Source: Schmidtea polychroa
Lineage: Eukaryota
NCBI GenBank assembly: GCA_044892525.1
Contig: CM097885.1
Span: forward strand, 46,810,001-46,873,726
Reading direction: 5' to 3'
DNA: 63,726 nucleotides
Shown: positions 16,601 through 56,700 of the stretch, in pieces
Layout of the letters: every line of letters begins with the position of its first letter
Position numbering within the stretch: position 1 is the stretch's first letter
Made by a program: the position numbers and the translations under genes
The notes under the pieces: generated by a model
Told to the model about the DNA's origin: nothing
The model's database searches: none
The model's input: the letters and a program-made list of their open reading frames with translations, nothing else

Positions 16601-19600
16601 AGGATGTAAAATAGAGAATAATAGTTGCATATATTTATCTCTACCCAATACACTAGTATGAGGAACCAGTTCTTATCAAATATTGAATAGCACTATTGTG
16701 TGTATTGGTTGACAAATAGAATTTATTTGTTTAGTAAATGTGAAATTATGCATTGATCAATAAACCCAAATATCTAATATTAGATATTTAGTGTTCTGAA
16801 ATATGTTAATAAAAGTTTTTCATTAATTATCATGTATATTTTGCTAACTTTTCACAAACAAAAAAGACAACACAGGTTTGTCCGTTTGGTATATATATTT
16901 ATGAACAAAAATATAATAAAAATCTTTACAAAAACACCAAATTTAATTTGCATTTCCACATTATTTCACAAATTAAAAAATGACAAGATAAGTAGATAGA
17001 TGAAATATAAAATTAGAAAAAACAATGAAATACATGAACAAAAAACCGATTAAGATTACTTAAGTTTTTTCGCTGTCATAATTTGTCATTATACACATCT
17101 GGTTGCGAAAGACTGTTTCAAAATCACTATCGTTTATCGAAATGTTTTGTTCTGTTACAAAAGCCAGGTTATCCGGGTGGTCTCTTCAACAAGATTAGGA
17201 TTTCCTAGAACTGATTGGGTGTTTCGTTTGTCAGTGAATTATATTATTAAATCCGGTTTTTGATAACTCATTGTATAATTTTTCCGAGGAGCAATACAAT
17301 ACTTCAGATTATGTTAGAATTATCCATCTCTTGCGACAATGGAATTGTTTGTCAGGAAATGATTTTCTAATTTATTAGCAATTAGAGTTTTAAGTTAAAA
17401 CTTTTAACCGTTTTAAATCAAAATTGTGTAAAAAAGATAATTAATAATTAACGAATTATAACTGTTTCTCATTAAAAACATCAATATTCCATATAAAAGT
17501 TAGCAATTCTAAAATAGCAGCTTACGAACTACTCGCAACATTTCAAATTTGCTTTAGAGTCGGGATATATTATCCCAATGGTATTATATGATGAGATAAT
17601 TTATTCCAAACGTATTTTTTATATCTTTATGTTATTTTTTTTGACGAAAAAATGTAATACCTGTTTAGTAAAATAACACGATTAAGAAAAGATAATCGGG
17701 GACTCAAAAAGTTAACAAATTTCAAAATGATAGATTAATTAAATACTTTAAACGCAAATGTTTTTTGTAGCAATTTATTTGAAATATTTAAGTACTAATG
17801 AATATTATATTCTCTGGTCATAACAATAATTAAATAAATTACGAGTTACATTTTATTTATTTTTCACTGAACAAAAAAATTTAAACTGATCAATGAATCG
17901 AAAATTCGGATTAAAGATTTTGCGAAAAATTGTTAATAATTCATATAGCTGTGTTCAAAATCAGCGCGCTCTTATTTTTCTAATGAATTAAAAACTGTGG
18001 ATAAAAATAAGTAACTTTAATACTTAAAATAAAATCATCAAATTTTCAGAAATTGGTTATTTTTCACGGATTATAGCTACCCAACCCGAGAAGCATGAGC
18101 GCACATACTTCTTGGGTGTAGTCTTTTTAAAAAAAAGGATAATTGGCTATTTTTTTAATAGTTTTCGAACTCTCATACATGTTTCACACTTTTTAAAATT
18201 TCACCACAAATTTCAAAAACAACAAGAAACATTTATATTTATATAAGATTCACGTCAATATAACTATCGCAAAATTTTCAATGGTTTTTATTTACATTTC
18301 GTAAATTTAACGGAAATTTGTTTGACATCATGAGACTCGATACGAATTGATTTTTTGTACAGAAATATTTCAAATAAATTCAGATCGAGGGAACAGAATT
18401 AAAATTTTCTCCATCGTAAATTCCAAATTTTCTGTCCCTCGATTCAGAAGTACTTTTCAAAATATTTAACATTGGTTGCAGAATTCCTGAAATATTTCTC
18501 GTTGATACACTCAGCTTTGCTTTATTTCCTTTTGCTACTTGAAATTCTTTCTGAACTTTTTGATCAAGATGAAGAATCTTGTTTGAAAAAGGAAATCTTA
18601 ACTGAAAGTAAAGTGGAGTTGTTTGCATTTTCCAGTCTATTTGACATAATCTTATGATAAATGGTTTTAAATGATGATTTACTAGAAGAAGAATGTATTT
18701 TATTCAACTAAAACTATAAAAAATGGTGAAATTTAAGGATAATTTTGAATATATGAAATGAATATCAATCCAAATATTTACTCAGTACTATTTTTTTAAA
18801 TTTAGCTTTTTAATTTTGTTTTTTAACAAAAATCTTTATAAAATTTAAAATTCTTAAAATCTTATGGATTAATATGTTGATAAGGAAATTTATTTTAATG
18901 CGCATTCTAATTAAGAATTTAAATAGAAAATTTTTTTTTCACAATTTCTATAAATTTTCTTACAATAGATTGCGCGCGCATGCTCCTCGGAGGGAGACGG
19001 TAGTATTTTAATAAATAATAAAATTTCGCGATTTTATTTATTAAAAGCTTTAATGTTGGGAGTTTTATAGAACAAGGGATTTCATATCACTGACTTCATT
19101 TTGAAATTGTAATTACATTTAAAACATCACTAAAAGCGAAATATATTTTATTATAACTCAAACTGTTATCTTAAAATTGACATCTTGTAAATTATTAGTT
19201 TATATATAATTTTTACACAATGTTTATTGTAAGTATTAGCATCAGTTTCGAACACCGATAATCAATAGATCCACTTAAACGAGCGGAAGTTTAGTGCTTC
19301 AAATTTTATAGGTCATTAATAATAATGAAGTTGATTTGATCATTTTAATTTTACTTAAAGATATATTTCAAGAGCGCTAGAAAGCATATGTGGAAGCAAT
19401 AGTGAAAAAATAATCTGGACTCAGGAATGTGAGAAAGCTTTCGAAGAAATGAAAATGGCGTTGACTACAGCGCCAATTCTCGTATTTCAAGATTTCAAGA
19501 AAGAATTCATATTAGATACAGACGCAAGCTTTGATACAATTGGAGCTGTATTATCACAAAGAGATGAAATGGGGCATAAACACGTTATTGCATATGGACC

Positions 19601-22600
19601 CCATGCAATGAGTAGCCATGAAAGAGAATATTGTATAACACGAAAAGAGCTTTTGGCTATATATTATTTCTGTCGCCATTTCAACCATTATTTATACCGT
19701 AAACGGTTTGTTTTGCGCACTGATCATAAAGCAATAACTTTTATGTTGACGACAAAGAAGCCTATAACAGCACAGTTCCAAACGTGGATAAATTACTTGA
19801 GCAGTTTAGACATAAAAATGGAGTTCAGGAAAGGTACGGCGCATACAAATGCAGATATGCTGTCTAGAAATACATGTGGCAAATGTGTACAATGTTTGAT
19901 GGACCATGATAACCCCAAATCAGGGCGATTAAAAACTAGATTGTTAACATTGATGACCGAAAATAATGGAAATGAATGGCAGAGATAATGCAGAAATACA
20001 AGATATAAAAGATCAAATAAATGAAAGGAAAAATAATAAATATATATTAAAAAGAAATATTATCTATACCAATCAAAACAAAATATGGATACCAGAAACA
20101 AAAAAACGAGAAATGATTAAGGAAACACATTTATTATTATGCCACGCAGGAGTAGAAAAAGTTATGAAATATAATAGGAACAATTTTGATATGGAAGATT
20201 TGCTAAATGAAGTAAAAGAGACTATTTCAATATGTGAAGCATGTCAGAAAAACAAAGTTTTAACTACAAAGTCAAAAGAAAAAACCCAAGTAATTCAAGC
20301 TTCAGAACCTATGGAGAAAATATACATGGATATTTGCGGTCCATTAAGAGAAACCTTCAGAGGAGAAAAATATATTTGTGCAATAATCGATCATTACAGT
20401 AAATACATATCTCTAACTCCTATTAGAAAGCAAGATGAAAATACAATAAAGGCAGTTTTTTTAAATAATTGGATATTGAAATTTGGAGCCCCTAAGGAAC
20501 TACATGTTGATTGTGTAAAGAATTTTGAAGCAAATAGTATTAAAGAACTAGCAAAGGCAGCAGGAATTGAGTTGATATTTTCGAGTCCGTATCATCATAA
20601 TACTAATGGTGTAATTGAAAGACAATTTCGTACTATAAGAGACTATATTAACGCGTAACTCAGAGAAGGAGTTAAAAAAGCTGGGCAGAATTAATATCTG
20701 ATATAGAATACGTTTTAAATGCGACAGCTCAAAAAACTACTGGAGTGAGTCCAGTAGAAATTATATTTGGGAGAAAGATTAATAGATCGCAATGGCATAG
20801 TAATAATGAAGTGGATAGAAGTGAAATCATGCGGAAATTAGAGGCTAAAAGACAGCAAGCGAAAGAAATTGGCACAACTAGGAACTTAGAAGTGGGGGAC
20901 AAAGTATTGGCGAAACAACAAATTAGGAACAAAGATCACGAGAGATATGAAGGACCATACACAGTAATAAAACGAAATCATGAAAGAAGTTACTTATTAA
21001 CAGACGAAAACGGGAGGAAAATAACGAGGAATATAGAAAAGTTAAAGAATTTTAAAGTAGGGGGATGAAAGGAGTTAGTAAATCTCTATATAAAATTATT
21101 ATGGTTAAATGGTAGAAGTGAGATCAGTTAGTAGAAATAATTATTTCTGTTAAATTTTTATATTTAAATTCTATATTAAATTATATCATATTATATTAAA
21201 TTATATTAAATTAAATCAATTAAATGTATAACCGGTAATTACATTAATATTAATAATTATCACGCCTCGGTGTTTAAATACGCTAGTAAACGGCGCAATT
21301 TTGAAGTTGTTATTAAAATAAATACTTGAAGAAGACTTGAATTTAATTTCGTCTAACAGGGTAAAAAATATTTTATCAACTTTTAATATAACATTTTGAG
21401 ATCAATTTTGAATTTTTATACATGTTTGAATGTAAAATCAATGATTTTTAAGGTTTAAAATTAAAGAGTATTAGTTTATTTGTATAAGTTTACTATATAA
21501 TACAATATCAAAATATACCAACACAATAAAGGACACTTGTGCGTAAATATTGATTAATCTCTTTAACTTATAAAAGAAAATAAATGTTTTTATTTTAAAA
21601 TAAGAAAAAAAACAGACAAAACTTCTAAAAATAATATTTGTAAGATTTTAAAATTATTTGCATTGAAGGTTTTTTATTTGTTTTACTTTATATTTCAATG
21701 TTGGAAAATTCGTAATTGTTTGTGTTGAGAGAATTGTGGATTATTTTACAATATACAGGTAATCCCCAAAGAATTTGTTCCGTGTTCTTTTAAACCGTGT
21801 TGTTCGAGACTACAAAAAACGGAATTTCCGTTTCAAGTGTGAAAATATAAAACTAAAAATTTTATTTTTTGAATTCAATTTAGTAAACACTTCAAAGAAA
21901 TCTTGTATTACATAATTCAAATTAAATTTTTAATTAGTTTAGAAAAAAAATTTTTATCTTAAATTTTTATTATCAAAATAAAACAAAAAATTTGCAAGCA
22001 TATCTTTATTTTGTTAAAATGACATTACCATGCCACCTAGTCCTTATCACTGGAGTCATCTGGTAACGTGATTCTAGTATATTTTCTTGAAAAATGACAT
22101 TTGGAGATTATATTATATCAAATAATAAATATATTTTATTCTTTTTCCATATAATTACTTGAAAATCGTGTAGTTTGAAACCGTGTAATTCGGACCAAAG
22201 TATTCGTGTTCTTCGAGGGTTGATTTTATTATTTAAAATATTTTTACCATCCTAAAATTTGCGGTTAAGTATATCTAAAAATGATATCAATGTTTGTAAA
22301 TATGATAAAGGCAACGGTTTAGTTATTTTGGAACTTGACGTCTACATTAGAAAATTAAATAATGTTTTATTAGCTCTACAGCTTATAAAAGTGGAGACAA
22401 CCGTATTAATCGGAAGTTACCACCAACGAAGGATGAATTGTTTTAGTTAAAACTGTTGAAGGAATTATCAGATAAGAAACATATGGACGTTGACTTAGCT
22501 AAGTCTATTCAATCGAAAGGCTCACAACCAGCAAAACGTCATGGAATACCTAAAGTGTGGTATCATTTGATGTGCGTAGTCTATTTTCGAATGTTCCACT

Positions 22601-29887: not shown

Positions 29888-31552
29888 CAGTGGCGTACGC
29901 AGGGGGGGGGGTTTAACCCCTCATGATTCCAACAACAATATAAAAAACTATAATTAATAAATATATAAACTTAAAACAATTTAAGAAATATTCCGAATGC
30001 CGATATATATACAGGCCCGACAAGAGGGGGGTTTGATGGGGAAAATGCCCGAGGCCCCGGAGAAAAAATCTATCATGATTTAAATCACTTGATTTTTTTA
30101 ATGAAAAAATCATGATTTCAATTTGTAGGAACTATGTTCCTCCTTTTGTAGTGCGTGTGTGTGGGGTACGTCTGGAGAGTGTCCGTTGCCAAGATTGCGA
30201 AAAAGTCTACACGGCACAAACGCATCTTGCAGTAATGGTAAGCACATGTGGCAATCTTTTGTTTGTCAAGAGTCAAGTGCTTGCTATCACTAGCTTTTGA
30301 CATTTTGAGCCTGTTTCATTATTTACAAACTATTATTATTTAACTAAAAGAAAAATTACAAACATTAATATTTTAGTAAGTGTAGTTGTTTGATCAATGT
30401 GAAAATCTCCAGGAAGAAGCGGATAAAGTAATCGTGTTTGTGAACTAAGCCGAAAGTGAATAAGAAATTAACCTAAGCTTTGGGCTACAAAGCATTTCTT
30501 TACCGGTGCTGGAGTGCTGAAGTCTAATTTTCGATTATTAGTAATTAGCAGTCAATGGGAGACCGCCATCGACTCCGATATTCGCGACGTGGATGAATTA
30601 GAAATGACACCAAGTGACGAATTCAGAACAAATGTTTTCAATGTTTTCTTAGATTGTATTATTGGAAATATTTGCAAGAAGATTTAATGCGGCTAAAGAA
30701 ATTGATTCGTTATTTAATGTATTATGGTTATTTCATAACCTTAATGATGAAGAAATACAAAAGAAGTCCGAAAAATTACAAAAGGTATATGAAAATAATT
30801 ATGACCATAATCTTGGTGAAGAAATACTCCATTTAAAATCAATTTATGATGCCAATATACAAAACAAATCTCTCTCGCCCATTGAGTTACTAAACATCAT
30901 TAAAAAAATGAAACTGGATGTATTGTTTCCCAACATAATAATAGCACTAAGATTATTTTGTACGATCCCTGTAACCGTTGCTGAAGCAGAACGATCCTTT
31001 AGTGTTTTTAAAAGGATAAAAGATGTTTTGAGATCCACAATGTCACAACACCGATTGAATGATTTAGGAATGTTGTCGATTGAATCTGAAATGGCTAAGA
31101 AAATTGATTTTCAAGACGTAATTAATTTGTTTGCTAGGCGCAAAGTTCGGAAAGCAACATTCTAAAAAATAATTTGTTTTTTGTACTTTTTTTGTAACTT
31201 TGGTTGTAAACGTTTTCATTTTTGTAAGAGAATTTTTGATGAATACATTGTTCCAATAACAATTAGGACATTTTTCGGTTTCCCGCTTCATTTATAAATA
31301 GCCCAAAGTCCGAGGGGAAAAATTTTTTTTCACGCTATTGGCAGGGGCCCTACAAGAAGTATATCCCCGGGCCACAANNNNNNNNNNNNNNNNNNNNNNN
31401 NNNNNNNNNNNNNNNNNNNNNNNNNNNNNNNNNNNNNNNNNNNNNNNNNNNNNNNNNNNNNNNNNNNNNNNNNNNNNNNNNNNNNNNNNNNNNNNNNNNN
31501 NNNNNNNNNNNNNNNNNNNNNCCCCGATGGATTCATCCTGCGTACGCGCCTG
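29888..31552. mobile_element. hAT element containing a nested second hAT
   Basis: Termini CAGTGGCGTACGCAGG and CCTGCGTACGCGCCTG, with exact 8-bp TSD ATTGTGTT (29880-29887, 31553-31560). The inner element starts CAGGCCCGAC at about 30012 and its right end runs into the N gap. Confidence 0.8.
30662..31165 (+). pseudogene. hAT (Tip100/ZMYM1-like) transposase C-terminal fragment
   Basis: LFPNIIIALRLFCTIPVTVAEAERSFSVFKRIKDVLRSTMSQHRLNDLGMLSIE is the hATC dimerisation domain. The catalytic core is deleted. Confidence 0.85.
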
Positions 31553-37549: not shown

Positions 37550-40500
37550 TTTAAATATTAAATTTAAACTAACTTAATTTTACCCTATTAGACGCAACAA
37601 CCCCAACGCCAATGTACCTTGGCACGGCCCTGTATAAATCTTTTTTTATAAATAAATAGTTAAACCTACATGGTAACGATTTAATTATAAGAAGGTGCCA
37701 CTCAAAAATTCATTTTACGATATATTTTGACAGTTTTCCTGTCATCATCAGGTAGGATATAATAACTATATAGATTATAGATTCTTGAACAAATTTATGC
37801 ATTATAAGAACTTCTTTCAATTTTCACCTCTGATTTCTTTTCAATTGACATTGCATTTATTTAAACATTGACTATGAATCAGTAAAGATATAAAAAACAT
37901 CAATATCTTTACTGATTCATAGNNNNNNNNNNNNNNNNNNNNNNNNNNNNNNNNNNNNNNNNNNNNNNNNNNNNNNNNNNNNNNNNNNNNNNNNNNNNNN
38001 NNNNNNNNNNNNNNNNNNNNNNNNNNNNNNNNNNNNNNNNNNNNNNNNNNNNNNNNNNNNNNNNNNNNNNNNNNNNNNNNNNNNNNNNNNNNNNNNNNNN
38101 NNNNNNNNNNNNAATTTTAATTTGTTTAACTTTTAAAATTTTACTTTATCTAAGAAATTGTTTTCTAAATAAATTTCAAATTTTTCATTTATAATAAATC
38201 CTCTTTGTATAAAAATAATCTTCAGTAATGAAATTCTAAAATCAGTTAACCTTCTCCGTGTAAAAAATAATGCTGATATTTATAGTGAGCCGTTCTATTC
38301 CCACAAAAACGGTTACAAAATGTGCCTTCAGCTTCATCCCGATGGATTCAAAGCTGGAAAAGGGACACATCTTTCTGTTTTCTTTTTCATAATGCGCGGT
38401 GAAAACGATGCACTTTTGCAATGGCCTATGAAACTGGAATTGACATCTTGCTTTATTGTCGAATATATTCAACAAATATACGGAGAGGGTTAAATATCAA
38501 ATATGCAAAATAAACACCCACTATAAATTTACTTATTGAAATAAAGTGTACTTATTATTACACATTTTTTTCATTTTATTGTATCAATTTAATTTAAGGG
38601 ATTTTTCCGTTTTTCATTATTCCTTATTTTAAATTCAATTTCCTCTAACACTGTATTAAATTTTATGATTTATATTTAATAATCTTTATAATTGTCGGTA
38701 CAAATATTTACACTGAAATATACATGCACACGCTATCATTTATCATTAATAATTATCTTGATGTTTATTGCTTGCATAAATTAAGCCGCAGCGTAGATTT
38801 TTATAAAAATTTTCTTTTTATCACGCGATTTTAAATTAAATCTTTAAATCTATATTAAATTAAATCTAATAAATCTATATTTAAATTAAATCTATTTGAA
38901 ATATGCTAGAAAATGGTCATTGATTAAATAAATTTTATTATTGACAAATTCTTTATTTTAATTAAGCAGATTAACAGTGAATTTCGTATTTTCTTCCTTG
39001 TATTATGTCGGTAGTTTTAGTTAAGCAATTAAAATTAAACAAGAGTTTTGTTTACAATTTAAACACGAGTTAGACGGACAAATTGAAAAATACTTCATTA
39101 CAAAAATAATTACTGGAAAATATCACGAAAAAGATTTTTTCAAATGACTGTCGAAAGACAAGTTTTATTTAGACGCGTCTTAACAAAATACGAGAGGATT
39201 GCTTCCTATTGAAATTATTTTGAATCATAAAAATAAAGTTACAATTGATTCTAGATAAAACCTTAGAGTTAAATTAGAATTAAATTAACAGTTGAACACA
39301 GTGTAAAAAGAACTATTATTAGAATAATATATATGGATGAAAATAAATACAAAACACTTTGAAATGTGATAAATTTTTCATTTGTAAGGAGAAAGATGAT
39401 ACTTTGAGATTGAAATACTATTAGGCAAAGACAATTAAATAGCTAAAAAGTTGGAAGAGTTTTCAAGGTGGAAGAGTTATCTATTTATTTATTTTATATA
39501 TTATATTTAAAACTTTAATATTTAATCGAATTAATTACTGAATTTGAAAAAAGGTAAGAAAGGAAAAAAATTTTATAATGAAATAATTTATATTTTACTG
39601 TGACACATTGCTACCCCGACAAGATTCTATTGCTCCCTGAGGGAACTTTCGACCCTTTTATCTAATCTGATGAATTCAAACAATCAACAAATTGTTGTCA
39701 TTGACTATTTGTCAACAAATTCACTGATAACAATACGTAAACGATTCACTTAAAATTTTAAAATTATTTCAAGCAAATTTGTAAATTTTTCAATAAATTT
39801 TTTAAGTAAACATTTATCATATTAAATTAATTAGATTAAACATTTCTAATTTTGCGTTTTGAAAGTTATATTTAAAGAAACAAAAAATAAAAATAGAATG
39901 GACGCATTAAAATATTATTGAGACTATCACCGTTTTACATGTTATTAATTATGTTTCATTTAACTTTATAAATTGATTTTTCTTTGATTAATTGCTGTTA
40001 TATAGATAATAAAATTCCAAGAAAAATGCGCGAGTTCTTATGTGTAATAAAAGTTGCTAATTTAAATATTTGTTTTAATAAAGTGAAACATTAAAATATT
40101 TTTAAATTTTTTTTTTGAGAAAATCAAAATATTTAAGTTACAAATTTATGAATAAGTAAAAATGACTTATAAATAGATAATAATTATTATAAGAAGTAGT
40201 GTGTTTATATCCCTAACGACCACAAGCCTCCCACTGTTTTCATGTTTTATACCTATTTTTCCCCCATAAACGTAAAAAAAACACTTAAAACCCCTAAAAA
40301 CCTATATCTTTTAATTTCTTTATTCTGAAGACATTTTGGTTTCAAAATAAAGACTTAAAAAAAACAACAAAAATATTAAAAAAACAACAAAAATATTAAT
40401 AAAACGGGGAAAAAAATACTGATAAAACTATGAAAAACGTTTGTCGGCTTGCGGTCGTTAGGGATATAAACACACTACTTGAGGATGTCAACTAGCAAGT

Positions 40501-43500
40501 TGCTATTTGACTAATTTATAATTTTATAAATCTTAATCTTGAAGAATAAAAAATTTTATGAAAATAGTAAAACTGCTCTGAGAGGACAGTGGTATTTTTT
40601 TTTTTTTTTTTTTCACTGTCCTCTCAACAGTTTTTTTTGATCCGGATCATTTTTTTTTTTTATTTCAACCTCTTTCGTTTATCAAATCTCTTCCAATATA
40701 CAAGCTGGCCAGACTTATATATCAGAATCAATTCGATAATAGCAGCACACCTTATTATTCGCTTCTCGCTCACGAAGTCGATTTCATCGGCGTTTTAAGT
40801 GTGCTGCTCGAAAGTACAAATGAATTCGAAAGCGAATCCGAAAGAGGTCCGAAAACAACCAAGAAATAAATGTGCACATTATAGAATCGATCCGGGGGTG
40901 TTCGAAAGACTGGTGGCGATAATTACCGGTTCGCCACCATCACCCGTTTCAATATTTTTTTTTTCATATTTATGTTTAAAAATTAATTAATTAATAAATA
41001 AATAAATAAAATAAACAAGATTTATTTCCTAAGATACCCACACCATTTTTCAATATTATTTTCAAATTTTTAATATTATTTTATGTTGAAAAAAAAACTA
41101 ACCTCAGACGTGATTTGAACCGCTAGCATTTGAACCACTGTGCCAGTCTATTCCCACTGCGCTATCGGAGTTCGGATTTTTGTCATTTTTTAAATTTTTA
41201 ATTAATAAAAAAATAAAATAAAATAAATAAAATAAAAATAAATAAAATAAAATATAAATCTAAGATACCCACACCATTTTCAATATTATTTTCAAATTTT
41301 TAATATTATTTTATGTTAAAAAAAAACTAACCGTAGTTAGGATTTGAACCGCTATCCATTTGAACCACTGTGCCAGTCTAGCCCACTGCGCTATCGGAGT
41401 TCGGATTTTTATCATTTTTTAAAATTTTATTATAAAAATGAATAATATAAATCTTAAAATTCAAGAAAAAAATAAATTAAATCTTGATTATAATAAAGAA
41501 TTTACTCATGAAATCAAGAAAAATGATATTTTAAAAATCTCGCCAACTTCAGGATCTATTGCAAACTTAAATCGTAGGGGTGATATAGTTTTTCAATCTC
41601 TTCAAACATCAAACCCAATAGATATTTGTAATGCCAAATTATATTATAAAATTGAATTAGAAATTGAAGCAAACAAAGATATAACCATAGAAAACAATTT
41701 CTTTCCAAATTTATTCTCCAACATGAGATTAAAACTAGGATCATCAGAAATTGAAACTGTTTTACATCCAGGAGTATATTCTACAATGTTAAATTTTATT
41801 TTGACTGGTTGTGATTATAAAAATGAATATGGTGAATTAACAGGTTGGATTCCTGATGTTAATAAAGGAGATTTAGATAAAGATGGTTTAGATATAAATT
41901 ATGCTTACTATAAAAGAGCTGAACTTTATAAGTTGAAAAAATTTGAAGGTTATTTTGAATTAAAACACTTGTTCGGATTCCTTCAAAACTATAACCGGGT
42001 GCTCCATAATGTTTTTATAGAACCCATCTGTAATAGACTAGAAGGTGATAAAAGATTGTTCTATGGAGCTGCAGATACAAAAGCTAAATTAAAATTATCA
42101 ACACTTGAATTGCATATACCTGAATGGAGATTAAATCCACATTCTGAAATCAAACTCCTTGAAAGATTAAATTCCAACAAATCTATAAATGTAAATTATT
42201 TAAATCGAATCTGTAGTGAATTTAGTATGACAGAGGGTTCAACATATTCTATAAAGGTAGCAAATTTAGCATACCGACCAAGATATATCTTGATTGGATT
42301 CAAAGAAACAGATTCATCTTTCCAAAAAAATAACAATCTATTTATTCAAAAGATTGGAGATGATAATATAAAAACAATCCAAATTCAATTAAATAGTTCT
42401 TATTATCCAATAAATAGAATGGAATTTAATATTGAAAATAATGAAAACATATTCCCATATCTAAATTATATTGAAACATGTTATGATTTCAAAGTTGAAC
42501 CGCAATTAAGTTTAGAAGATTTCAAAAATTTATATTCTATATTTTGTATAAATGTATCAGACCAAGATGATCGCCTAGCTATAAATAATGTTGATGTTAC
42601 ACTTCATATAACAAAGGATTCTAATTTTAAAGCTAAAGTATATACATTAATATTAGAAGAAAAGAAAATAGAAATGAAGTTGTATGCTGGAAAGATTTCA
42701 ATTATTGAAAATGTTAGGGGAGATTCTTCATAAGTAGATTCCCCCATAAAAAAACTTTTAAAATGAGTAAATATTGGACATGTGAAAGTTGTAATTGTCA
42801 AGTTACAAGACATCACAAAGCAAGTCATCTCAAAACTAAAAAACATACGAGAGTTGATATTACAGGAGGTGATCTACAATCTTCAAAAACAACATCTAGA
42901 ATCTTGAAACTTTTTACTAATGAAAAATATCCAGGTGAAAGACATTTATTCCATCACAACTATACTGGACCTGGAACAAGATTAGATATTAGATTAGATG
43001 AAAATAATAATCCTAAACAAGGAGAAGAACCAATAAATAGAATTGATCAAGCAGCTTTAAAACATAACATTTCTTACAACTCTGAAGATCTTAGAGATAA
43101 ACATGTTGCTGATGTGAATTTAATACATGAGTTAAATAATATACAAAATCCATCAAGCAAGGAAAAGATTCAAAGAGCTCTAGTTAAATTAGCAATGAAA
43201 GGTAAGATTTTCATAGGCTTAGGACACAGTCCGATCACCATGGGTGCAAGACTTCCTAGGAAAGCAAAAGATGTTGCTAATAAAAAGATTATCGAACAAG
43301 CAGAGATTGAAAGATCCCTCGAGAGTACAGCCAAGACTAGTTTACAAACCCCAACAGAATCAGAAATAAAATATGCTAATGAATTACACCATGAATTTAG
43401 AAAAAATAAAAAATATTTAAAAGTTCAAGTACATGAAAAAGATCAAACATGGTCTGCTGATTTAGTCTTTATGCCCAAATCATCAGACCCTGAAAAATAT

Positions 43501-46500
43501 AAAATAATTTTAACAGTAATAGATTTATATACAAGATTTGCTTTTGCAAGGTGTTTAGAAAATAAAACAGGATATTCTATTACAGAAGCATTTGAAAATA
43601 TATTTGAAGAATATCAAAGAATTCCAAAATATTTATGGTGTGATAAAGGAACAGAATTTTATAACAAAGTTTTTACAAAGTTTTTAAATGAAAATGATAT
43701 TAAATTATATTCAACAGAAAACGAAGGAAAAGCAGTTGTGGTTGAAAGATTAAATAGAACATTAAAAAATAAAATGTGGAAATATTTTACTGCTATTGGA
43801 AAACAAAAATGGAACAATGAATTGTTACAAAAGATTGTAAATGAATATAATAATGATGTACATAGTTCTATAAAATCAACACCTTTAAATGCTTCCATGA
43901 AGCCTGAAACCATTAAAGTGGTGAATATTGAAAATGATGTTATTGTTGATACAACCCCTATAAAACCAAAGTTTAAAATTGGTGACCGAGTAAGAATATT
44001 TAAATATAAAAATAAATTTGAAAAAGGATTCACAGCAAAATGGACAAATGAAATTTTTATTATAAATAAAATACATTATACAACTCCAATAACATATAGC
44101 ATCATTGATTTAAATAATGAAAAAATATTAGGTAGATTTTATAATAATGAACTACAGAAAACAGATTTTTAAGTCGACAAGCCCTAAAACAAACTTTTCC
44201 ATATTTCAGCTTCTTCTCTATCCAAATAAATATAATTATATTTTTCTTTCCAATGATTATCAACAAACATATCAAACATATTCTTATCAGGTTCAACATT
44301 TGAAAATAAGTCATTATAAATCATATTCTTATCTCGACGATCTAATTTAAAAAATATAAAACAATTGGAATTATTTCTTATAGAGTTTTTATCTAAAGCA
44401 TAATATGTTTGAGATATATAAATAACATTACAATTATTATGTCTACCTCGTGTAAAGTAACTCTTTTGAATCTCTTGATTTTTCATGTTAACAACATCAT
44501 CAAATATAACTAGATTCTTTTTATCTTTAGGAAGTAAATCACAATGCAAAACATCTTCAGGTTTATTAGAGAATAAAACTCTAATCCCATAACCCTCCCT
44601 CTGCCCCTCATCTTCACAGATGTAATCATTTTTATTACTAATATCTGATTCTAAAATCTTTTCCTTGTACCAATCAACCATATCACAAGGATGAAAAACC
44701 TCTTCGGGATATGTATGTTGATTTTTAAAAATATCAATTATTGCTTTTTTAGTTAATTTATTTTCAAATCCACATTTCAAAAGTTGTAATTCCGGTTGGT
44801 TAATGGTTGTAGAATAAAAGATTAAATTATTATAATCCAAAAAACCATCTTCTAATAACATTCTCATAAGAAGAACATTCTTTCCACATCCAGAAGATCC
44901 AATAATTAAGCATCTAAAATTATCAGGAAATACTTTATTATTAAATTTAGATTTATGTCTATTTAAAATTGGTTTCCAAGTATCCATTTTTATTTATTAT
45001 AAAATGACAACACAAAACCCTACAGAGGAATCTTTGCAAGAATTAATAAATTCAAATAAAAATAAATCAGTAGTAATCTCTGGTAAAAACTATTTTATTG
45101 GAATACATGTAAAAGAACAAGTTAAAGAAAAACTAAAGGAAGGAGGGATTCTTCCTCTGGCGGCTTTAATACCTGCAATCATTGCCGGACTATCAGGTGC
45201 TGCTGGAATAGCTGGAGGAATTGCAACTACAGTTCAAAAAGCTAAAGAATCTCAAAAGACAGACCTAGAAAAAGAAAAACTACAAACTGAAATCGAGAAA
45301 ATGAAGGGAGGGAAAGGTCTTTATCTTGATCCTTATAAAGGTCGTGGTTTAAATGATTTTTTAAAAAATCAAATTTCTACATCTGAATCTTTATCTTCAA
45401 AAGATAAAGATGATTTAAAAAAAATATGTAAATCTTTAAAAAATGGATGTCTTTGTAAAATTAAAAATGGTAAAGGTTTATACTTGAAACCCTTTCCAAC
45501 GGATCCTTTACCAAAATGATACCATTTTTAATACCATTAAAATGGTATATGAAGAAAGATTAGCACTTTTAAAAAAATTACAATCAGATCAAGATAAATA
45601 TAATAAAAAAGATACAACTCAACACGCTGAATCTATAATATTAAATGAGGTAATCCAACAACAACAAGGACCAACAATTAAAGCCATAAAAGAGTTAGAA
45701 GTTTTAAAATTTAAAGAGTTGGAAGATAAACAAGATTTAAAAGAATTACCATGGTTGGAAGATTTAAATATAAAACCTCTTATACTTGATCCTAAAATTA
45801 ATGTGAGTTTAAGTAAAACAATTAAACCTACATTTAATATTAATGTTGAAGGATATCAAATAATAACAATTAATAAACATGACTTTCTGTTATATTTAAA
45901 TTCAGAAAATAAATCACGTATTCATTCACAAAATGTTTATAATACTAAACACCTAGATTTTGAATTTACAGATGATTTTTATGGATTAGTTTGTGGATAT
46001 CCCTCAGAGAATGTTGATCTTCTAGAAATTAAAAAATATTTAAATTTAATAGAATTAGTACATGGTAGTGCTAAAGCAAAACATATTCAAGATTTAAAGA
46101 AATATTTAAATAAAAATGAAAGGGGTTATATTGTCACAGAAGGAGAGGGCCAGGGAAAGGGTAAGGAGATAAACCCAATCAATCTTTTTATTGAATTAAG
46201 AAAACTATTAGCAGCTAAAAAAGCAGGACATAATAATTTAGATTCTGATATTTTAAAGATTTCTAAAGAATTATTAAAACAAGGAATAATTTCAAAAGAT
46301 AAATTTAATAAGTATACGAAGTTATAAATACGAAGTTATAAAATATAAAATGACTCCTTCAATATTAGATTTTTTAAAAACATTTGGAATAAATACAAAA
46401 ACAAATTTTGATTTAAAAGATTATGCAGATTATTTAAATTTAAAAATAAAAATATTAATGAATGATGAATTGTCGAGTCTGAAAGAAGACACTCCAAAGA

Positions 46501-49500
46501 ATATCATTATAAATTATCAAAATTCAAATGAAAAAGGATCTCATTGGGTTTGTATATATAATAAATCTATATACTTTGATTCTTTTGGGATTAAACCCAC
46601 TAAAGAAGTTGAAGACTATCTCTCGGACTACACTTTTAATTCTTTACAAGTTCAACCTAATAATACTAAAATATGTGGTATTTTAAGCTTATATGTTTTG
46701 TATAGATTGAATAAATCCAAAGGAGAAGGTTTCACTTCCTTAATCCAAGAAATTTATAATGATTTAAAATCTATACTATGAAAATGGAGCTTCGCAACCT
46801 TCCGGAAGATAATTTAAAAAAAATGGTAAACATAATGTCAGATAAATATTCAAGAACTTTATCTATAAATTCAAAAGAATCAGACTTTACTATAAACTTT
46901 CAAGATTCAATTAAATTAGATCAAAATTTAAATTATGAATTAGGACTATTATGGTTTTGTGCTTATAATACTATTTTTAATATAACTAAAGATAATAACA
47001 TATTTTATTATATAAGCCCAAAATCTACAGATAAGATTATAATAACAATCGAACCCGGAGCTTATGAAATAAAAGATTTAAATAATATACTTTCTAAAAA
47101 AACAAATGGAGTCATTAAAATTAAAATGGATTTACCAACTTCAAAATGTATAATGACTTTAGAGAATATAGGAATTCATTTTCAAAATAATAGTTTCTTT
47201 AGAACAATTTTAGGATTTACACGAAACCATTATATCACACCTGTAGTTGAGAATATAACATCAGAAAATATTATAAAAATAATAAATACAAACACAATAA
47301 ATATTCATTGCGATTGTATAACTGGTTCTTATAATAATGGTAAACAAACAAATGTTTTATATTCCTTTCCCTCAAACACAGTTCCTATGGGATATAAAAT
47401 AGTTGAAAGAATGAATCCTCCAAATTATTTACCTTTATGTAGAAAATATATAATGGATATTAATTTTAAAATTCTTAATCAAGAAGGAGAATTGATTGAT
47501 TTTAATGGAGAAGAGATTTCAATGTATTTACATTTGAAACAGGTTTGAAGATTCATTTTAAATTATTAATAAATGAGTTCTTATATTCCATGTAATAGAG
47601 GTGGTGGAACAATAAAAACAGGGTTTAATACAGAAGAAATATTAACTTTAACAGAAAATAAATATATTAATGAAAGAGGTGATTCAATGAAGGGTGATTT
47701 AATTTTAAATGGACACAAGATAAAAGAATTATCTTTTCCAACTGATGAAGCTGATGCAGTTAATAAGAAATATGTTGATGGTGTTAAAAAATATACTGAT
47801 TTAACAACAACAAGAATTGAAAGTTCATTAACAACAAAAATTGATAATATCGAGCAACGATTTAATGATAAATTTGACAAGTTACAAAGTCTGTTAACTG
47901 AACAAGTTGTAAAGTTAAATACTAGCATATTAAATTCTAAAGATAAACAAATTATGAATACTAAATTTAATACAATATATAATATAATAAATGAGATGAT
48001 TACATCATTTAATAAAAGACTTTCAAATTTAGAGTCTCATACAACACACATTAACACCACACATAGTATTAGAAAAAGAGCTGCTGAATTAGAACAGAAT
48101 AAAACATTATTACCCCATACATATAAACATTTTATAGAACCAAGTTTAATAACAACAAACAGTAAAGAATGGGGTGTTTTTATGGTTGTAAAGATTATTG
48201 ATCCTTATTTCTTTTTATTTGATGATGATAATGAAAAAATGAAATGGTTTGTGAAATGTGATTATAATAGTAAGCTTGAAAAGGGTGATGTTATAATGAC
48301 TAGTTATGATTTACCACACGGAGATTGGTATGTTAATACTCATTCACATGGACTACATAAAGTTAAAAGTAAGAATATTATTTTTAAAAGCACACTTGTA
48401 CAATATATAGATTTAATATTTTATGAAAAAAAGGTTGATGTTGATGAAGTTCGTAAAGCATTGATGGAATTGTATAAAGATATTCTCTCAACAAGAGTTT
48501 CTTTTGATATCCGAGTATTGGTACCAGATGGTGCTCAGAAGAATAAAGTCTTATTTTTTTAATTATTAAAATGGACAAAGTCCAAAAGATGGAAGAAGTA
48601 AGAGAAGAAAAAATTTACCCAGAGGTCCCTCCAGAATTGAGATCATCAGGATATTATTCCGAAGGTCACAAAAGTTCCAAGGCCTCGGCTCCCACAGAAC
48701 TTGAAATTATGAGAGTAAAAGAATTTAAATCAGAAACCTTACATTTACAAGATTTATTAAAGCATTATAAAAAGGTTAAAAATAGATGGAATAAAGGGAA
48801 TACAGTTTTAAAAATTATAGGTTATTCTTTAGGATTTGCATCTGCAATATTAACAGTTATTTTACCCATAACTTTACCAGTTTTAACAATAGCACCTGTA
48901 ATACTTGGAAGTATTTCTTTAGCTGATGGTTTCTTGACTGAAATAGTTTCATTATCTTATACTTCTAAAAAGAAAAGTTTATATCGTGAAGTTTGTTTAT
49001 CAATAGAATTAGGAATCTCTAAATTATTTTTATTTCAATTAAAAGCTTTGGAAGATGGAATCTTAACTGATGATGAAATAATGAAATCAAATCAAATAAT
49101 ACAAGATATTAAAAATAATATTAATAGATTAAAAAGTGCTAATGTTATAACTAATGAATATTCTAAAATAATTAAACGAGAGAAGTGGCTAAAGAATCAT
49201 ACATAAAAAAATTTATTGCCCTTCAAAAGGTTGATGTTGTCACTCTTAAATTAATTGTTGACATTTTTAAAAGAAAAAAATCATTTGATAGAATCTGATG
49301 TTAACTTTTCGAAATTAGTTTTTAGAACCTCCTTATGATCTTTAAATTCTTTATCACTTAGACCTTTTATATATTCAGGATCAGTATTAAAATATTTAAG
49401 TTCTAAACATATAGGATTAAAAACTTGAGAATATAAAGGTTTCTCAATTCTCTCAGGATAAATGATTTCAACATTATAAATATCAAGATCAGTAATCTTT

Positions 49501-52500
49501 GTATCATATAACTTATTCAAACTAGCAAGATTTTTTATTATCGGTATTAAATTATTTCCTATAGGAAGAGTTGTCTTTAAATCACTTAGTATGAATCTTT
49601 TATCATCATAATTTGATAATGATACTTTTTGGGATTCTATCAAGTAAATATCATGCTTTTCACTTTTAAGTTGATGTATTTCATCAATTTTATCTTTATG
49701 ATTTGGATTCAATGTATCTATATAATCTTGATGAGAAAGATTCTTTGCTACACATCTCTGAATTCCTTTACATCTGTTATCCTTTACAGGTTTTTCTTCC
49801 TGTCCGTCAGGTCCTTTAGGGAATATAGGATATCTATGTGTAATGCTTTCTTCTGTTTCTGGGGTTTTAAATATAAATGTATGTTCTTCAAATTTAGGAT
49901 TTGTAAATGTTTCATATGAATATTGTTTAGCACGAATAAATATTCCATTTTCTATAGGAGTAAAAGGTTTTTCATCTTTAAACGAAAATAATTCTCCAGA
50001 TGAATTTATTAAATTTGAAAGTATAGGATTTTCAGAGATATCACTTTGTAAATCGTGAGTTCTTATTGTTAAAAACATTGAATCTGTATCCATTGCATGC
50101 ATTGCTATATTCGATCCATATATAGGTTGTAAGATGTTATAATATGTTTCATACATTTGTAATTTTGAAAGTTCTAAAATTGCAAAGCCAATAAATATTG
50201 GTTTATTATATGTTTTCTCATAATTCTTTAGTTCTACTGCAGTAAGATTTTCAGAAAATACTTGTGCGTTTTTAAATGTAGGCTTTCCTAGCATACGATT
50301 ATAACGGGCTATATCTTTCGGGGTATTTGTTAGGAGTTCAATATGAGTATATTTATCAACATTCTCCATTGTCTTCCCAAAGACTGAATTGTTTAAAAGT
50401 TTATAATTATTGTCTTTTAAAAGGTTACCTTCTCTTTTTGCAATGTTTCGACAACGAATGTTCTCCTCGATGAAAGTCTTCATGAATGCTGCTTGTTTAA
50501 ATCTTATGACACTATGAACTTTTTTTAATATCATTCCTTGTGAAAGATAAAACTGGAGGAGTCTATAGTGACAAAGATAATAAGTTCGATCTGTTTGATC
50601 ACAAAGAAGTTTCATTGTTGGAGGTTTATCTTGTGAGATTTGCCATTCAGAAAGTTCGTTGATATCAATCTTTCTTCTTATAGGAGCTAAAGGGAAATGT
50701 CTTGTTCCTGATTTTATATCATCTGGGTAGTCGAGGTCACATTCTACAAAGTATCCTATTGGAGAATCTTTAGGAGTTGAACGTATTTCTTTCATAAGGT
50801 CTTTTAAGGGGCATTCTTCTTCTGAGGGGCATTCTGGAGGATATATTTCATGAAAGTCACTCATTGGTAAATATTGAGTCATAATTCCTGAATATAAAGC
50901 TGTTGCATCTATATAAAGTATAAATAGAGGATTTTTCATTCCTTCTAATACTTCTTTTAGTTCCTCATTGTTAAGTTTTATATATGGATCAGGGTGTTTA
51001 GAGATTCTTCGGCTAGTAGTTATTGCATTTCTAGCTTTTATTTCTCTATTCCCCATTACTGAAGATACTCCTCCTCTAATGTTTGTTTTAATTTGATTAA
51101 ACATATCTTGGTCGGTTAAAAGATCTATAATTTTATCAGATTCTGGAAGATCTGAAGTTCAAATGGTATATAACATAGTATCCCAAGCTAAAGAAGGAGC
51201 TGTTATATAATTATAAGGTTTAAGAACAAAAGACTTTGTAAATTCTTCAAAGCAATCTGCTAGAATATAAACATCTAGGGATAAGTACATACTTGTATAT
51301 TCTCCTAAAGTTTTACAGTTGAAAAGATCCCACATTTTATTTGCTCGAGAATATTCTTGATTTGTAATATGAGATTTTTGAAGTTGGGAATAGAAATCTT
51401 CTTTCTCTGGTAATTTTGTTTCATTATATTTTTCAAATGAATCAACATAGTCATAGGGATATATTCCTTTTGCTAAGCATGTAGGATATTCTTCTGGGGG
51501 GATATTATTTTTTTCCAAGAATTCTCGAGTGATTTTAAAATTTTCTGCTTTCATTGGTTTAGCTATTCCATCTAGAGACATTTGGAGAAAGTTTAACGAG
51601 TCTATAAATTTTAATTTTCCATATTCAACTGATTTATATTTTTCCTTTGTAAGTCCTATAACTTTGAAAGAGTTTTTAGCATTTTCTGCTAAATGTTTAA
51701 TAAATAGATGTATGTCATAACCAAAAAGATTATGAAATATAACTGGTACAAATTTAGGAGTATGACAATTAAGATTACAATTTCTATGGGCTGCTCCTCG
51801 ATAATTATTTTCCTTTTTTAAATGATCGTGATCTATAACTTTATCATCAGGAAGAATGTCTTGTTTACACATCCAACAGTTGGAAGTATTTTCATATTCT
51901 TGTTGTTGTTGATTAGAAATTTTTTGAGGATACTTTGTTTTTAATATTTTAAATATTTCATGTTCTAGATCATTTATACTTTTAGTAAAATGATTTAAAA
52001 CATCTTCTGAAGTTCCTTGAAATGCATATTCTCTAGATTCTATGAGTTCAGGATAATTACTTTTAAATAATAATTTATAAGCAGATGGTAATTGTTTAGT
52101 TTTTTAACACTATTAGGTTTATTTCTTTTTCTTAGAAAGGCTTTCATCCTCTCTGGTTTCATCTTCTGTTTAGAGGCTTTCCATTCATCCATGAGTTTAT
52201 ATTTTTCTATTATTTTTAAATATTGCATAATTATATCTTGTTTACGATTTATAGATTCAAAGTCTCCATAGACAACTCCTAATGTTTGTAATAAATTTGA
52301 AAAGTTTTTAAAATACATCCTGGGATCTGTAGGCATTCTAATTAAAGCTGGATCATCTTTTTCACAAAATCTTGCATGTTTAATCATAGAGTTTTTAGTT
52401 GTTGAATAATGAAGACATCTTTTACATGTTCCTCCTCCACTAGTTGGATTCTCTGGTGATGTAAAAGCTTGAAAGTCTTTTATTAAAACATAATGTTGAT

Positions 52501-53690
52501 TATTTCCTTCTTCCAAGATTAAAAGATATATCTCCCTCGTGCTATCACTATCAGAAATATAAATTGGAATAATATCTTTCCTTCCATGTCCCCATCCTTT
52601 AACATGTTCATAAATATTAAGTTTAAGATTATTTAGTTTTTCAAATTCTGGAATGTCTTCTAGTTTCATTGGGTGTGTGAATCCCTTGGGAAATATTAAT
52701 TCATTTTCATATTGTTTGTATTTTGAAACTCTTTGAGGGTTTTCAGCTTGAGGATGTAAATATGCAAGTATTGACCACATGAAACATTTGTTATCCTTAT
52801 TCTGTACATTTATAACAACCCTAGATCTAAAGGGTGTTTGAATATAAGATTTAGGATTAGGTGGTAATCCTCTCCAATAATCAATCACTAAAGTTTGGAA
52901 AGAGTTGAATACTAAGTTTGAATCTCCTAATTCATTTTCAACCTCTTCTTGTTTTGCTTCTACTGCTTGAATTATTTCTTTGATGCTTTTATTAAATCCT
53001 CTAGTTGAAAATAAATATTTAAAAGGTATTCCAATTTCAACATCTAAAGGAGTTGTCTTTTCTTCTGGTCCTCTCCAATATTTTGCTTTGATTGTAATTT
53101 TATATTTTATAACATTATACCTTGTTGGTTTATAATTTTTTAAAGCTTCAGTGAAAGAATTTTTAATATTTTTTTTATTTCTCTTTATATATTCTCCAGG
53201 AGTAGCAGGTCCACTGATTTCTGATTGAAATCCATCTATGTGATTAAATTTATCCCAGTTATATTTTTCTTTTTCAACATGATCAGGTTCTCCTTCTGAA
53301 TGACATTCTTCAACGTCAGAATTTTGTTTTTTATTTTTACATTCTTTTAAATGTCTTAAATAATAGAAATTTAGTTTTGTTGAAAAGTTACAATGAGGAC
53401 ATGTAAATATTTCTCTATTTTTCCCGATACAATTTTCAAAATGTTTATTATATCCAGAATGTAGAAATCTTCCTTTACATTTAGTACAAACTTTTGAATT
53501 TGTGTCATTAAGATTATTTTCTTTTAGTAAGTGAGCTTTCGATTTATAGTGAGAAATTAATCCTGTTTTATTTTTAAAAACTTTATTGCAAATATTACAA
53601 TTCATTTTTAGAAAAAATTTTTTTACTGGATACGTTGTTTTTAAATTTTTATATATTTATTTTTATTTTTATTTTTTTTTATTTTTATTT

Positions 53691-53722
<32 letters not shown>

Positions 53723-56700
53723 TTTTTTATATTTATATTCTAGCAGCTTGCCAAGCTATCGACCTGCCAAGCTGTCGACTTACCAAGCTGTCGACTTGCC
53801 AAGACCGCAGCGATTGCATCATCGACTTGACAAACTATCGACTTGATAAACTGGCGACTTGATAAACTGGCGACTTGATAAACTGGCGACTTGATAAACT
53901 GGCGACCTGCAAGTAGTGTGTATCTATCCCTAACGACCGCAAGCCGACAAACGTTTTTCATAGTTTTATCAGTATTTTTTTCCCTGTTTTATTAACATTT
54001 TGTGTTGTTTTTTTAATATTTTTGTTGTTTTTTAAGTTTTTATTTTGAAAGCAAAATGTCTTCGGAATAAAGAAATTAAAAGATATAGGTTTTTAAGGTT
54101 TTAAGTGTTTTTTTTTTACGTTTATGAGGGAAAAATAGGTATAAAACGGGAAAAAAATAGGTATAAAACATGAAAACAGTTGGGAGGCTTGTGGTCGTTA
54201 GGGATAGATACACACTACTATAAGAACTTTTTTTCCAATTTCACCACTGTTTTTCCATTGAATTTATTAAAAAAGCTTGAAGACTATAAATCAGTAATAT
54301 ATCGATGTTTTTGATATATTTACGGATTTATAGTCTTCAAGCTTTTTTTAATAAAATAATAATTAATTTAAACCAATTTTCTATGAATTTATAAAATCTG
54401 ATATTTTATTATTATTACTTATTACTTTTGTTTATCTTTATATTTTTACATTTTTCAGAATGTTTAATCATAACAAATATACCCAATGTTGAATGAAAAA
54501 TTTTGATTAAATTTCAAATAAATAGAAAATTATCTATTAAATCGTAGATAAAGAAACCAAAATTTTGTGAAAGAAATTTGAAAATAATTTTTAATAGTTT
54601 TGTTGAAAAACAGGAACTTAACCAAATTCTTTCTTGATAAACCGTAATTTTGTATTGAACTTCATTTAATCCTTTCGGTAAGTTGCAAACATGCTATTTA
54701 TGACCAAACTATAAATCAAAATTCATTAATTGTTATCGAAGTACGTTCAACTGCAACTACATATTATATATCAATTAACCGCGATGAGCTTTTTTTGAGG
54801 ACATTTACAAAGGGTTAAAATAAAAATACAAAAAATAACAATGTAATTCAAAAATTGATGGAAATTTTGTATTTATCTCGCCCTTATTTAGCCATCTCCT
54901 GATTTTTGCTACGGCTATGTTAATTTCCGTCAAGTCAAAGATAAGTCGATCCGACGAGGATATTTTCAAAAAGTAAATTTCACTACATTTTTTAATTTTA
55001 AATGTCTAATTTTTTTAGTCCGTAGTTGTTTTAAGCCCATTGCCTTTTATTAATTTATTTTATAAAGTATCGGAGTTAGTAGCGCTAGCATATTTTGACG
55101 ACGGAGAAATCGGCCTGGAAGTTGGTATGAAATATGATGAATAATTATTGAAATGAATCTGAACTATAGTTTGTCACAATATTGATAAATGGGGACCGCC
55201 AATGGCCGGACAGTTGATCAATCTTCCTTTGAGAGGAGTTGTTCTACAAACGCAAATTCCCATTAAAACTGACTATGTAAAATGTGAACCAAATGGAAAG
55301 GTGCGAATTTCGAAATCTATTATTCAGGACATAGAAGACAATGTTAATTCTCAACTTTATTTATCGATTTGTATTTAGTTGTAAAAATTTTGCAGGAGGA
55401 TCAGAAATTATTAATAGATAATTCATCAATTTGTATAATTCCATCTGTACATAATCAAGACTGTTTTACCGCTTTTGGAGCTGTAGTTAGCCAATTGCAA
55501 TTACTCTGGGAGCTCGTCTTAACCAATCAAGTAAATATTTCTGCATTTATTCCGTTACAGTAAATAAATTACTTATTAACTGTCATACTATTGAATTGAT
55601 TATTATACAGTCAATAATATTCTATTAATATTATTGACAGCTGGCATTTGAATATTTCACTCAATATTTCTATTTTTGAAGTAGAATTTATAATTTCTAT
55701 ATTGCTTGAAATTCAAATGTAATTTCTAACTTGTTTTTTGTCTGAATTCTAATGGAATTTTACCTTTGAAATAATATGATTTATCTTTATCAAATTGGAT
55801 TTAATCTATTACCATATTTGATCCCATAACAAATGGAGAAATATTACATTAATTGAAAAGGTCTGTAATGTCATCTATCAAAATGTAACTGCAATAAACA
55901 TGATAGTTGATTGATTCATCTGATTGTTTTTGACGTAACATAAGTGTATCATAGAAATTATTTCAATGATAATTGTCCAATTATATAATACACAATGCAA
56001 TTTATACCATTTTAATTATTGAATTTTTTTCATGAATTCATATATAAGTTTAGTGCAGAATTCTATAACTTGAAAGTTATTTGATTATATTACATTTTGA
56101 TAATGTTGCTTTTTATTATTGTTAACACTTGGGATGGGAAAAAATGGACATTATAGTAAAATGAAAGAAAATTCATAAACCAGTTCGAAATGATATGTTT
56201 TATTCAAAGCACGCTTGTATTAGTGAACTTCAAGTTGATGCTCTTCCATCATCTTCACTGGTCTTTCAGCGACAATATTGGATCTGGGAATATCCAGAAC
56301 AGGCGGCTTCTTAACCCATTGGGTTTCGAATCATTTTATCGCATTATGACATTCAAATGTTAAAATAGCAGATGTTTTATTAAATAATTAGGTAAAAACT
56401 CACTCAGTGGAAATAATACTCCAAAAATTTCTTAACTGAGCATCATATGAAAGCAGAAAGAAATAGGCTATTAGAGTAAATTTTGCGTGGGAGTTCCATC
56501 TGTTATTTAGCAAAGGAACCTTCACCATTTCTAATCGGAAACTTACCTGACTTCTGATGGAATTTATACGCTTCAAACACTCCAAAGGGAAATCGAACAA
56601 TGGAACGCGACAAGGTCGTTTTTTTATTAACATCATCAGATCCTGTGCATATTACAATATACAATATTTTCTTTCCTTTTTTGAAGCAGTTTTCAATCTA

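Follow-up and report, generated by a model that had tools for sequence, protein, structure and literature searches.

How does a Polinton copy and repair the ends of its genome? The question is raised by a provirus in a 63,726-nt stretch of Schmidtea polychroa DNA (assembly GCA_044892525.1, contig CM097885.1, positions 46,810,001 to 46,873,726; hereafter the window, whose first letter is position 1). The provirus is a Polinton/Maverick element of 14,025 bp (40195-54219), which begins with AGTAGT and ends with ACTACT. Each of its terminal inverted repeats (TIRs) is an imperfect palindrome; this, the most interesting feature of the locus, was absent from the original prediction, which had been made from the sequence alone. 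In the lineage described here the TIRs open with a unit of 243-308 nt held between two inverted copies of the terminal 27-34 nt or so. The two repeats of the provirus are as follows.

40195..40479, no strand: left TIR, 285 bp, imperfect palindrome (outer arm 40195-40228, inner arm 40446-40479)
53912..54219, no strand: right TIR, 308 bp, imperfect palindrome (inner arm 53912-53945, outer arm 54186-54219)

Alignment of one TIR with the other gave 271 matches, 11 mismatches and 29 gap positions. The terminal 34 nt or so are repeated in inverted orientation at the inner edge of each TIR, 285-308 nt inside, and the similarity between left and right ends 2 nt inward of the inner arm. When the 3′-terminal strand was folded and compared with shuffled sequences, the right end reached −67 kcal/mol (z −10.0) and the left end −55 kcal/mol (z −8.2); the predicted fold at the TIRs of the provirus is a terminal hairpin with a geometry capable of priming. 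At positions 11 and 13 the two ends of the provirus differ, yet the two arms within each end agree.

The same arms were compared among sister copies. The assembly (781 Mb, the four largest contigs being of 272, 190, 145, and 93 Mb) contains 119 exact matches to the outer-arm pattern, that is, about 60 elements. From 113 units, 97 were distinct by their outer flank: 40 right ends, 49 left ends, 4 unclassified, and 4 without an inner arm. Agreement between arms was scored at the diagnostic sites 8, 10, 11, 13, and 31. Both arms agree at all five sites in 35 of the 40 right ends, which fall into three haplotypes (20, 11, and 4). The left ends showed another pattern: 28 of them carry a right-type tip, and in 26 of these the inner arm is unchanged, the other two looking like replacements of the whole TIR. 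The right-type tracts in left TIRs run inward from the terminus, either for about 31, 100, or 215 nt or as far as the inner arm; three right ends carry left-type tips of less than 24 nt. Right-type tips are thus found over left inner arms because right-end sequence enters the left TIRs from the terminus. These terminus-anchored tracts are best read as the footprint of panhandle copying, and the inner arms, to judge from the 26 of 28 left ends, seem to behave as donors. No flow from a tip to its own inner arm was seen at the left end. On a tree of the neighbouring sequence with 23 rows (drawn from 30 sequences, four of which were excluded beforehand and three of which were too short), the state of the left tip changes 7 times, against 7.4 with shuffled labels.

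Among 111 exact inner-type arms no flipped terminus was found: the CA of the element itself stands before 107 of them, and the remaining 4 belong to one right-end type, element-internal in the two that were fetched. Position 28 holds the polarity between outer and inner arm in 90 of 93 units, and the other three have the outer state in both arms. A separate observation concerns the G-type ends (for instance L071-L079), where positions 8-19 form a perfect 12-bp palindrome by way of three simultaneous changes; this arm variant resembles a product as from a local template switch.

The comparison was extended beyond the provirus subfamily. Twenty right ends were taken from the polB rows of lower identity; two were of the provirus subfamily and 18 of other subfamilies. 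Nine of these 18 carry a stem (24 or more of 36 nt), while random host 36-mers reached at least 24 matches in 2 of 300 cases and 30 in none. The elements of the nine stem-bearing ends have the unit at their opposite end as well, within TIRs of some 340-1000 bp. Of the 10 other units measured, 8 are 243-255 nt long. The identity of the arms is complete to position 27 and then falls sharply (2-12 of the next 18 positions), and the loops of different subfamilies are no more alike than shuffled sequences. With respect to the arm of the provirus, 12 of the positions 8-27 are changed in both arms of the subfamily copy L118, with zero discordance.

A distant instance is a metagenomic Polinton (L139) with 31% capsid identity and a similar gene set, which starts with AGTAGT. 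Its inverted tip copy ends 150 nt in and gives a perfect stem of 21 bp (z −12.9). A second, degenerate inverted tip copy can be seen by eye inside the first (L139:205-245). Among 23 metagenomic loci the terminal unit was found in this one alone, though most of the loci are contigs too short to include an end and so do not count as negatives. No relatives were found in the viral_contigs collection.

Taken together, these data suggest that single-stranded intermediates have their 3′ ends rewritten with the opposite end or the inner arm as template, a reading of the whole that we hold to be probable, with appreciable doubt. According to it, the element would be copied off the chromosome by protein-primed strand displacement, which is the established model for the family. 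The displaced single strand would form either a panhandle, its 3′ end pairing with its own 5′ end, or a local hairpin, in which the 3′ end pairs with the inner arm lying at that end. The 3′ end would be trimmed and then re-extended on its paired partner, and the tip would take its new sequence from there, whether this is the opposite end or the inner arm. The latter would then be a protected spare template for the origin and the integrase site. As a more speculative step, since the inner arm offers no natural stop, the overshoot might be cut at ACTACT by the integrase or by an HNH-like domain of the polymerase. The reading draws its support from the folding z scores, the agreement of arms within an end, the polar tracts, the donor inner arms, the stems of other subfamilies, the changes in both arms of L118, the design of L139 and the left-tip changes on the tree, which are as frequent as with shuffled labels. 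All the flows that were observed fit it, namely, from inner arm to tip and from tip to opposite tip in both directions. The wider proposal, that a lineage of animal Polintons with a protein-primed family B polymerase (pPolB) has telomere-like, self-folding ends in which the 3′ end uses the inner tip copy as template or primer partner and is cut back by one of the element's own nuclease domains, is put forward tentatively, and we would sooner expect it to fail than to hold.

Several points weigh against this reading. The evidence is wholly comparative, and the set of sister ends is not a random sample because the loci were picked by hand from pattern and BLAST lists. Discordant arms occur in 5 of the 40 right ends, and agreeing arms in 19 of the 49 left ends only, which may simply retain an older state; the covariation within ends in the provirus subfamily is therefore carried by the right end, and by about three events instead of 35. 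With 11 of its 20 branches open the tree is weak, and recombination between copies would scatter the tip states alike. Of the 18 right ends from other subfamilies, 5 lack an inner arm in the first 1000 nt, in one the inner arm is truncated and in three the terminus was not located; in L114, L126, and L127 decay has left a stem of 21-23 of 27. The palindromic structure is thus dispensable in successful subfamilies. L139 is a single contig end with a flank of 15 nt only. As to the mechanism, it leaves the stop of the extension at the tip unexplained; the integrase and the HNH-like domain are candidates only, and the HNH-like match lies below the Pfam cut-off.

The absence or decay just described would also fit if the palindromic unit were a neutral by-product, one that recurs by copy-back template switching, or through a mini-element that caps the ends, and is sometimes refreshed by copying but has no function. 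The loops, which cannot be aligned between subfamilies, allow independent origins; a mini-element of 198 bp with two outer arms and its own target-site duplication (TSD) exists (L090), and so do mirror-ended copies (L012/L060). Such an origin is harder to reconcile with the nearly constant length of the unit despite those unalignable loops, with the sharp drop in identity after position 27, which is not expected from a single duplication, and with the recurrence of the design in L139, and we consider it unlikely. A second alternative takes the predicted folds at face value: the 3′-terminal base is paired with the inner arm's first base, which is the geometry of a primer, and a folded 3′ end could prime the whole second strand as in parvoviruses, a nick then resolving the hairpin. 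In the provirus subfamily the TIR ends 2 nt beyond the inner arm, as this would have it, and of the two strands it is the 3′ one that has the more stable fold in 13 of 13 units, an effect that is weak and in part compositional. The available part of 10.64898/2026.07.28.741278 puts forward this model for palindrome-ended virophages and PLVs (polinton-like viruses). The hairpin transfer of adeno-associated virus (AAV), as described in the accessible portion of PMC11575299, yields both flip and flop, and no flip was met among the inner-type arms of our set. The polarity of position 28 also speaks against it, as does the fact that the element retains pPolB and the AGTAGT repeat. Asymmetric resolution, as in other parvoviruses, could still avoid flips here. 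On balance we regard self-priming of the whole strand as improbable.

Slightly more improbable still is that the inner arm serves as an additional double-stranded binding site, either for the polymerase or terminal protein or for the integrase, the likeness of the arms being due to one protein that reads both and not to pairing. The 28 left inner arms that tolerate at least three mismatches to their own tip would be understandable in this way, and so would an identity limited to the 27-34 nt that an origin may occupy. One protein, however, would not make the arms agree within each end while the ends differ, as they do in the provirus and its group. Among the loci examined, no inner arm was seen serving as the end of an integrated element, and no solo TIR flanked by a TSD was found.

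By comparison with known systems, the closest are the animal Polintons/Mavericks (PMC8097293; 10.1101/2023.08.22.554363), which, in the portions of both articles that were available, are elements of 12-25 kb with TIRs, (AGT)2//(ACT)2 ends and TSDs of 6 bp, with genes for pPolB, rve integrase, ATPase, protease, and capsid proteins, and with most copies decayed. Unlike what is found here, hairpins or palindromes in the TIRs have no occurrence in the available text of either. In a planarian, Polintons are reported to be targets of Piwi-interacting RNAs (PMC8532177, available part). The provirus would be called adintovirus-like by its gene set: as in the adintoviruses of PMC8502044, so far as its accessible text goes, there are PolB, rve integrase, FtsK-type ATPase, probable adenain, and hexon genes and PLA2-like and pX-like domains. 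In the PLA2X fusions of that same text the two domains are joined, whereas here PLA2 is fused to the integrase and pX is separate, and no OTU domain was detected by Pfam. The HNH-like insert in polB recalls the pPolB2 group of Jeong et al., where HNH inserts are reported from the pPolB2 of nematodes and oomycetes only.

Palindromes at the tips of TIRs beside the TSD, together with a proposal of hairpin priming, are described for endogenous virophages and PLVs of Halocafeteria (10.64898/2026.07.28.741278). According to the available part of that source, those palindromes are short (52 nt in the subtype figured, with a search gap of at most 10 nt), the elements that bear them mostly lack pPolB and live in a protist host, and no covariation is reported. 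The present elements differ in that their arms are 150-308 nt apart, they encode pPolB and reside in an animal-type genome, and they show changes in both arms and polar tracts. The inverted terminal repeats (ITRs) of AAV and other parvoviruses are similar in the terminal fold-back, with the 3′ end ready to be extended, and in the panhandle repair of incomplete ends (PMC11575299, accessible portion). The Schmidtea elements depart from AAV in having no Rep/HUH gene and no flip/flop among the 111 inner-type arms, and in keeping a protein-primed polymerase and an integrase. The panhandle end repair of adenovirus and the fold-back patching of Streptomyces telomeres may be related, since there too the 3′ end of a linear DNA primed by a terminal protein is completed on a complementary partner. 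An inner inverted arm is not known from the ITRs of adenovirus, and the replicons of Streptomyces are not integrating elements. An account of an inner inverted arm in Polinton TIRs was not found in the literature searched, passages of PMC11296320, PMC6431247, and PMC11414722 included, outside which lay Kapitonov and Jurka 2006, Pritham 2007, Repbase, and bioRxiv supplements. The palindrome-ended virophages and PLVs of 10.64898/2026.07.28.741278 are, as that article reads in its available part, the only near precedent.

Apart from its TIRs, the provirus is an ordinary, decayed member of the known Polinton/Maverick kind: it has a pPolB gene, an rve integrase, TIR ends of the (AGT)2//(ACT)2 type, a 6-bp TSD, and a double-jelly-roll capsid protein together with a packaging ATPase. 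The original prediction had called it a near-complete adintovirus provirus of fairly recent insertion; Pfam matches, capsid fold, and sister identity support a recently inserted Polinton/Maverick of adintovirus-like type. The AGTAGT termini, the perfect ATAAGA duplication, and the absence of N inside the element were likewise as predicted, the six runs of N in the window being all outside the provirus. The duplication is formed by the following two copies.

40189..40194, no strand: left copy of the TSD, ATAAGA, 6 bp
54220..54225, no strand: right copy of the TSD, ATAAGA, which opens a high-copy palindromic host repeat (to about 54360)

The point of insertion is thus the very start of that host repeat (54220-54360), to which 40 of 40 scored candidates match, the best with 93%. 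In all four of the other copies of the repeat that were examined, the hexamer is present once, preceded by T and followed by the bases of the right flank. Perfect TSDs of 6 bp were found in 30 of 35 paired sister copies and in 13 of 15 copies from other subfamilies. Taking into account these duplications and the single hexamer in other copies of the repeat, the TSD of the provirus is not due to chance. With dozens of near-identical copies, 30 of 35 pairs of which have a TSD, such a clean footprint is the rule and not a rarity. No allelic empty site was seen in the assembly, where the left flank is single-copy. The junction stretch is partly present in 20 of the 23 sequencing runs listed (six with at least half of its words; eight studies), in all cases as contigs; no RNA run is among these listed holders, which says nothing about expression.

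With regard to copy number and age, a piece of polB has 152 matches in the assembly, of which the 150 listed have 85-100% identity, and open frames of at least 1450 aa are found at 10 of the best 24 polB matches. Matches to the capsid gene are of full length, with 98-100% identity, in 40 of the 40 scored. The nearest of 20 sisters are 99.7% identical over 1.1 kb of polB, and the left TIR of the provirus is identical to that of another copy. The frameshift of the provirus polB occurs in none of the 19 sisters covering that site; at the codon of the provirus stop, one sister also has a stop, but by another triplet. The spread of an already broken polB was considered and rejected, the lesions not being common to the sisters (L181 covered neither lesion). 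Because its sisters are near-identical and its lesions are unshared, the provirus is a young copy, inserted by the integrase, whose polymerase gene broke independently, at or after insertion. Dating by the divergence between the TIRs was rejected: the 11 mismatches and 29 gap positions are largely family-wide, that is, inherited traits of the family, and therefore give no date for the insertion. A virion-competent lineage, as had been suggested, is plausible given open capsid genes and the long polB frames among those best matches.

Other arrangements were noted among the copies. One copy is inserted within the ATPase region of another (L005). In L011, L013, L061, and L062 two neighbouring copies have swapped TSDs, as after mutual recombination. 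L012/L060 is a single element whose two TIRs are both of left type and whose TSD is perfect, and the mini-element of L090 (L090:577-774) is of the deletion type, with a perfect 6-bp duplication.

The ten-gene set with nine intact open reading frames (ORFs) that had been proposed was recovered by ORF analysis, pPolB being the tenth and broken one. All the genes lie on one strand except those of polB and the ATPase.

41438..42733, plus strand: major capsid protein, double jelly roll, 431 aa (PF21738, E 1e-25)
42763..44172, plus strand: rve integrase with an N-terminal parvovirus-type PLA2-like domain, 469 aa (PF00665, E 3e-12; PF08398, E 2e-7; both above cut-off)
44184..44987, minus strand: A32/FtsK-type packaging ATPase, 267 aa (PF04665, E 2.5e-8)
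45004..45519, plus strand: core protein resembling pX, 171 aa (PF05829 with E 0.003, under the cut-off; a similar ORF in L139 by eye)
45542..46327, plus strand: ORF of conserved position, 261 aa (weak C-terminal match to an ORF of L139, E 0.003)
46350..46781, plus strand: probable adenain-type maturation protease, 143 aa (42% identical to an ORF of L139)
46778..47548, plus strand: probable minor capsid protein (putative penton), 256 aa (38-39% identity to ORFs of L133 and L139)
47573..48562, plus strand: fibre-like coiled-coil ORF, 329 aa (PHROG tail-fibre matches, E 2e-6, residues 35-99)
48571..49206, plus strand: membrane-protein-like ORF, 211 aa (hydrophobic stretches by eye)
49281..53605, minus strand: pPolB, family B polymerase, in three pieces (PF03175, E 1e-7, above cut-off; PF02945, E 0.009, below)

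[quoted passage not shown] The model of the penton candidate (pLDDT 43) was too poor for a fold search, and this protein has no Pfam match. The active-site motif of PLA2 in 42763-44172 looks noncanonical against what we take to be the parvoviral pattern. In the protease ORF, His, Asp, and Cys motifs were seen by eye, which presumably correspond to the adenain pattern; it has no Pfam match, and a sequence search of the PDB gave nothing significant. Searches of Pfam and the Atlas gave no match for the 261-aa ORF, while for the 211-aa ORF the Atlas neighbours are unnamed and recognition was below threshold.

In the polymerase gene the frame shifts somewhere from 52040 to 52103, and 51159-51161 is a stop in frame; the provirus copy cannot encode a whole polymerase. 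Its relatives number in the thousands. In its N-terminal piece a Pfam-level search showed zinc fingers only and no OTU domain, and a PDB sequence search with polB gave nothing significant. An HNH/endonuclease-VII-like motif lies within polB (51700-51930, minus strand; Pfam E 0.009, under the cut-off). Neither a TBP-like gene nor a Rep family was found among the Pfam matches of the provirus (40195-54219).

The noncoding parts of the provirus contain further repeats.

about 40567-40636 and 40742-40810, no strand: two further hairpins in the left noncoding region, also in other subfamilies
41047..41430, minus strand: two tandem units of about 230 bp, from repeat analysis
53744..53909, no strand: 16-bp tandem repeat array (family D1), adjoining the right inner arm from inside

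Both hairpins occur even in subfamilies without an inner arm; that at 40742-40810 has a z of −3.6, and no Rfam family reaches its cut-off for either. The units of about 230 bp carry what we take to be A-box-like and B-box-like motifs of RNA polymerase III followed by a run of T, and the B-box-like motif recurs within the TIRs of other subfamilies. They may possibly specify a small polymerase III RNA like the virus-associated (VA) RNA of adenovirus; ARAGORN and Rfam found nothing in them and their folding is not above that of shuffled sequences. Elsewhere in the window there are an intronless DEG/ENaC channel ORF (749-2353, minus strand), a remnant of a long terminal repeat retrotransposon (19359-21068, plus strand), and a hAT remnant (30653-31165, plus strand).

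The copying of Polinton ends is at present a model and not an observation. If the tracts are read as proposed, the some sixty near-identical copies, which keep terminus-anchored tracts and changes in both arms, would be a fossil record of single-stranded intermediates, and the reading predicts snap-back or panhandle molecules, the end that acts as donor, and the points at which reads should stop. Were the telomere-like proposal true, replication would combine protein priming with end repair assisted by hairpins, and the direction of copying, from inner arm to tip and from tip to opposite tip, would be recorded in the genomic copies. If the inner arm is general, the annotation of Polinton TIRs would have missed a cis-element, and inner arms may be mistaken for ends of elements. 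The self-folding, co-changing ends described here are a variant through which the model of end replication in Polintons can be checked with reads that already exist.

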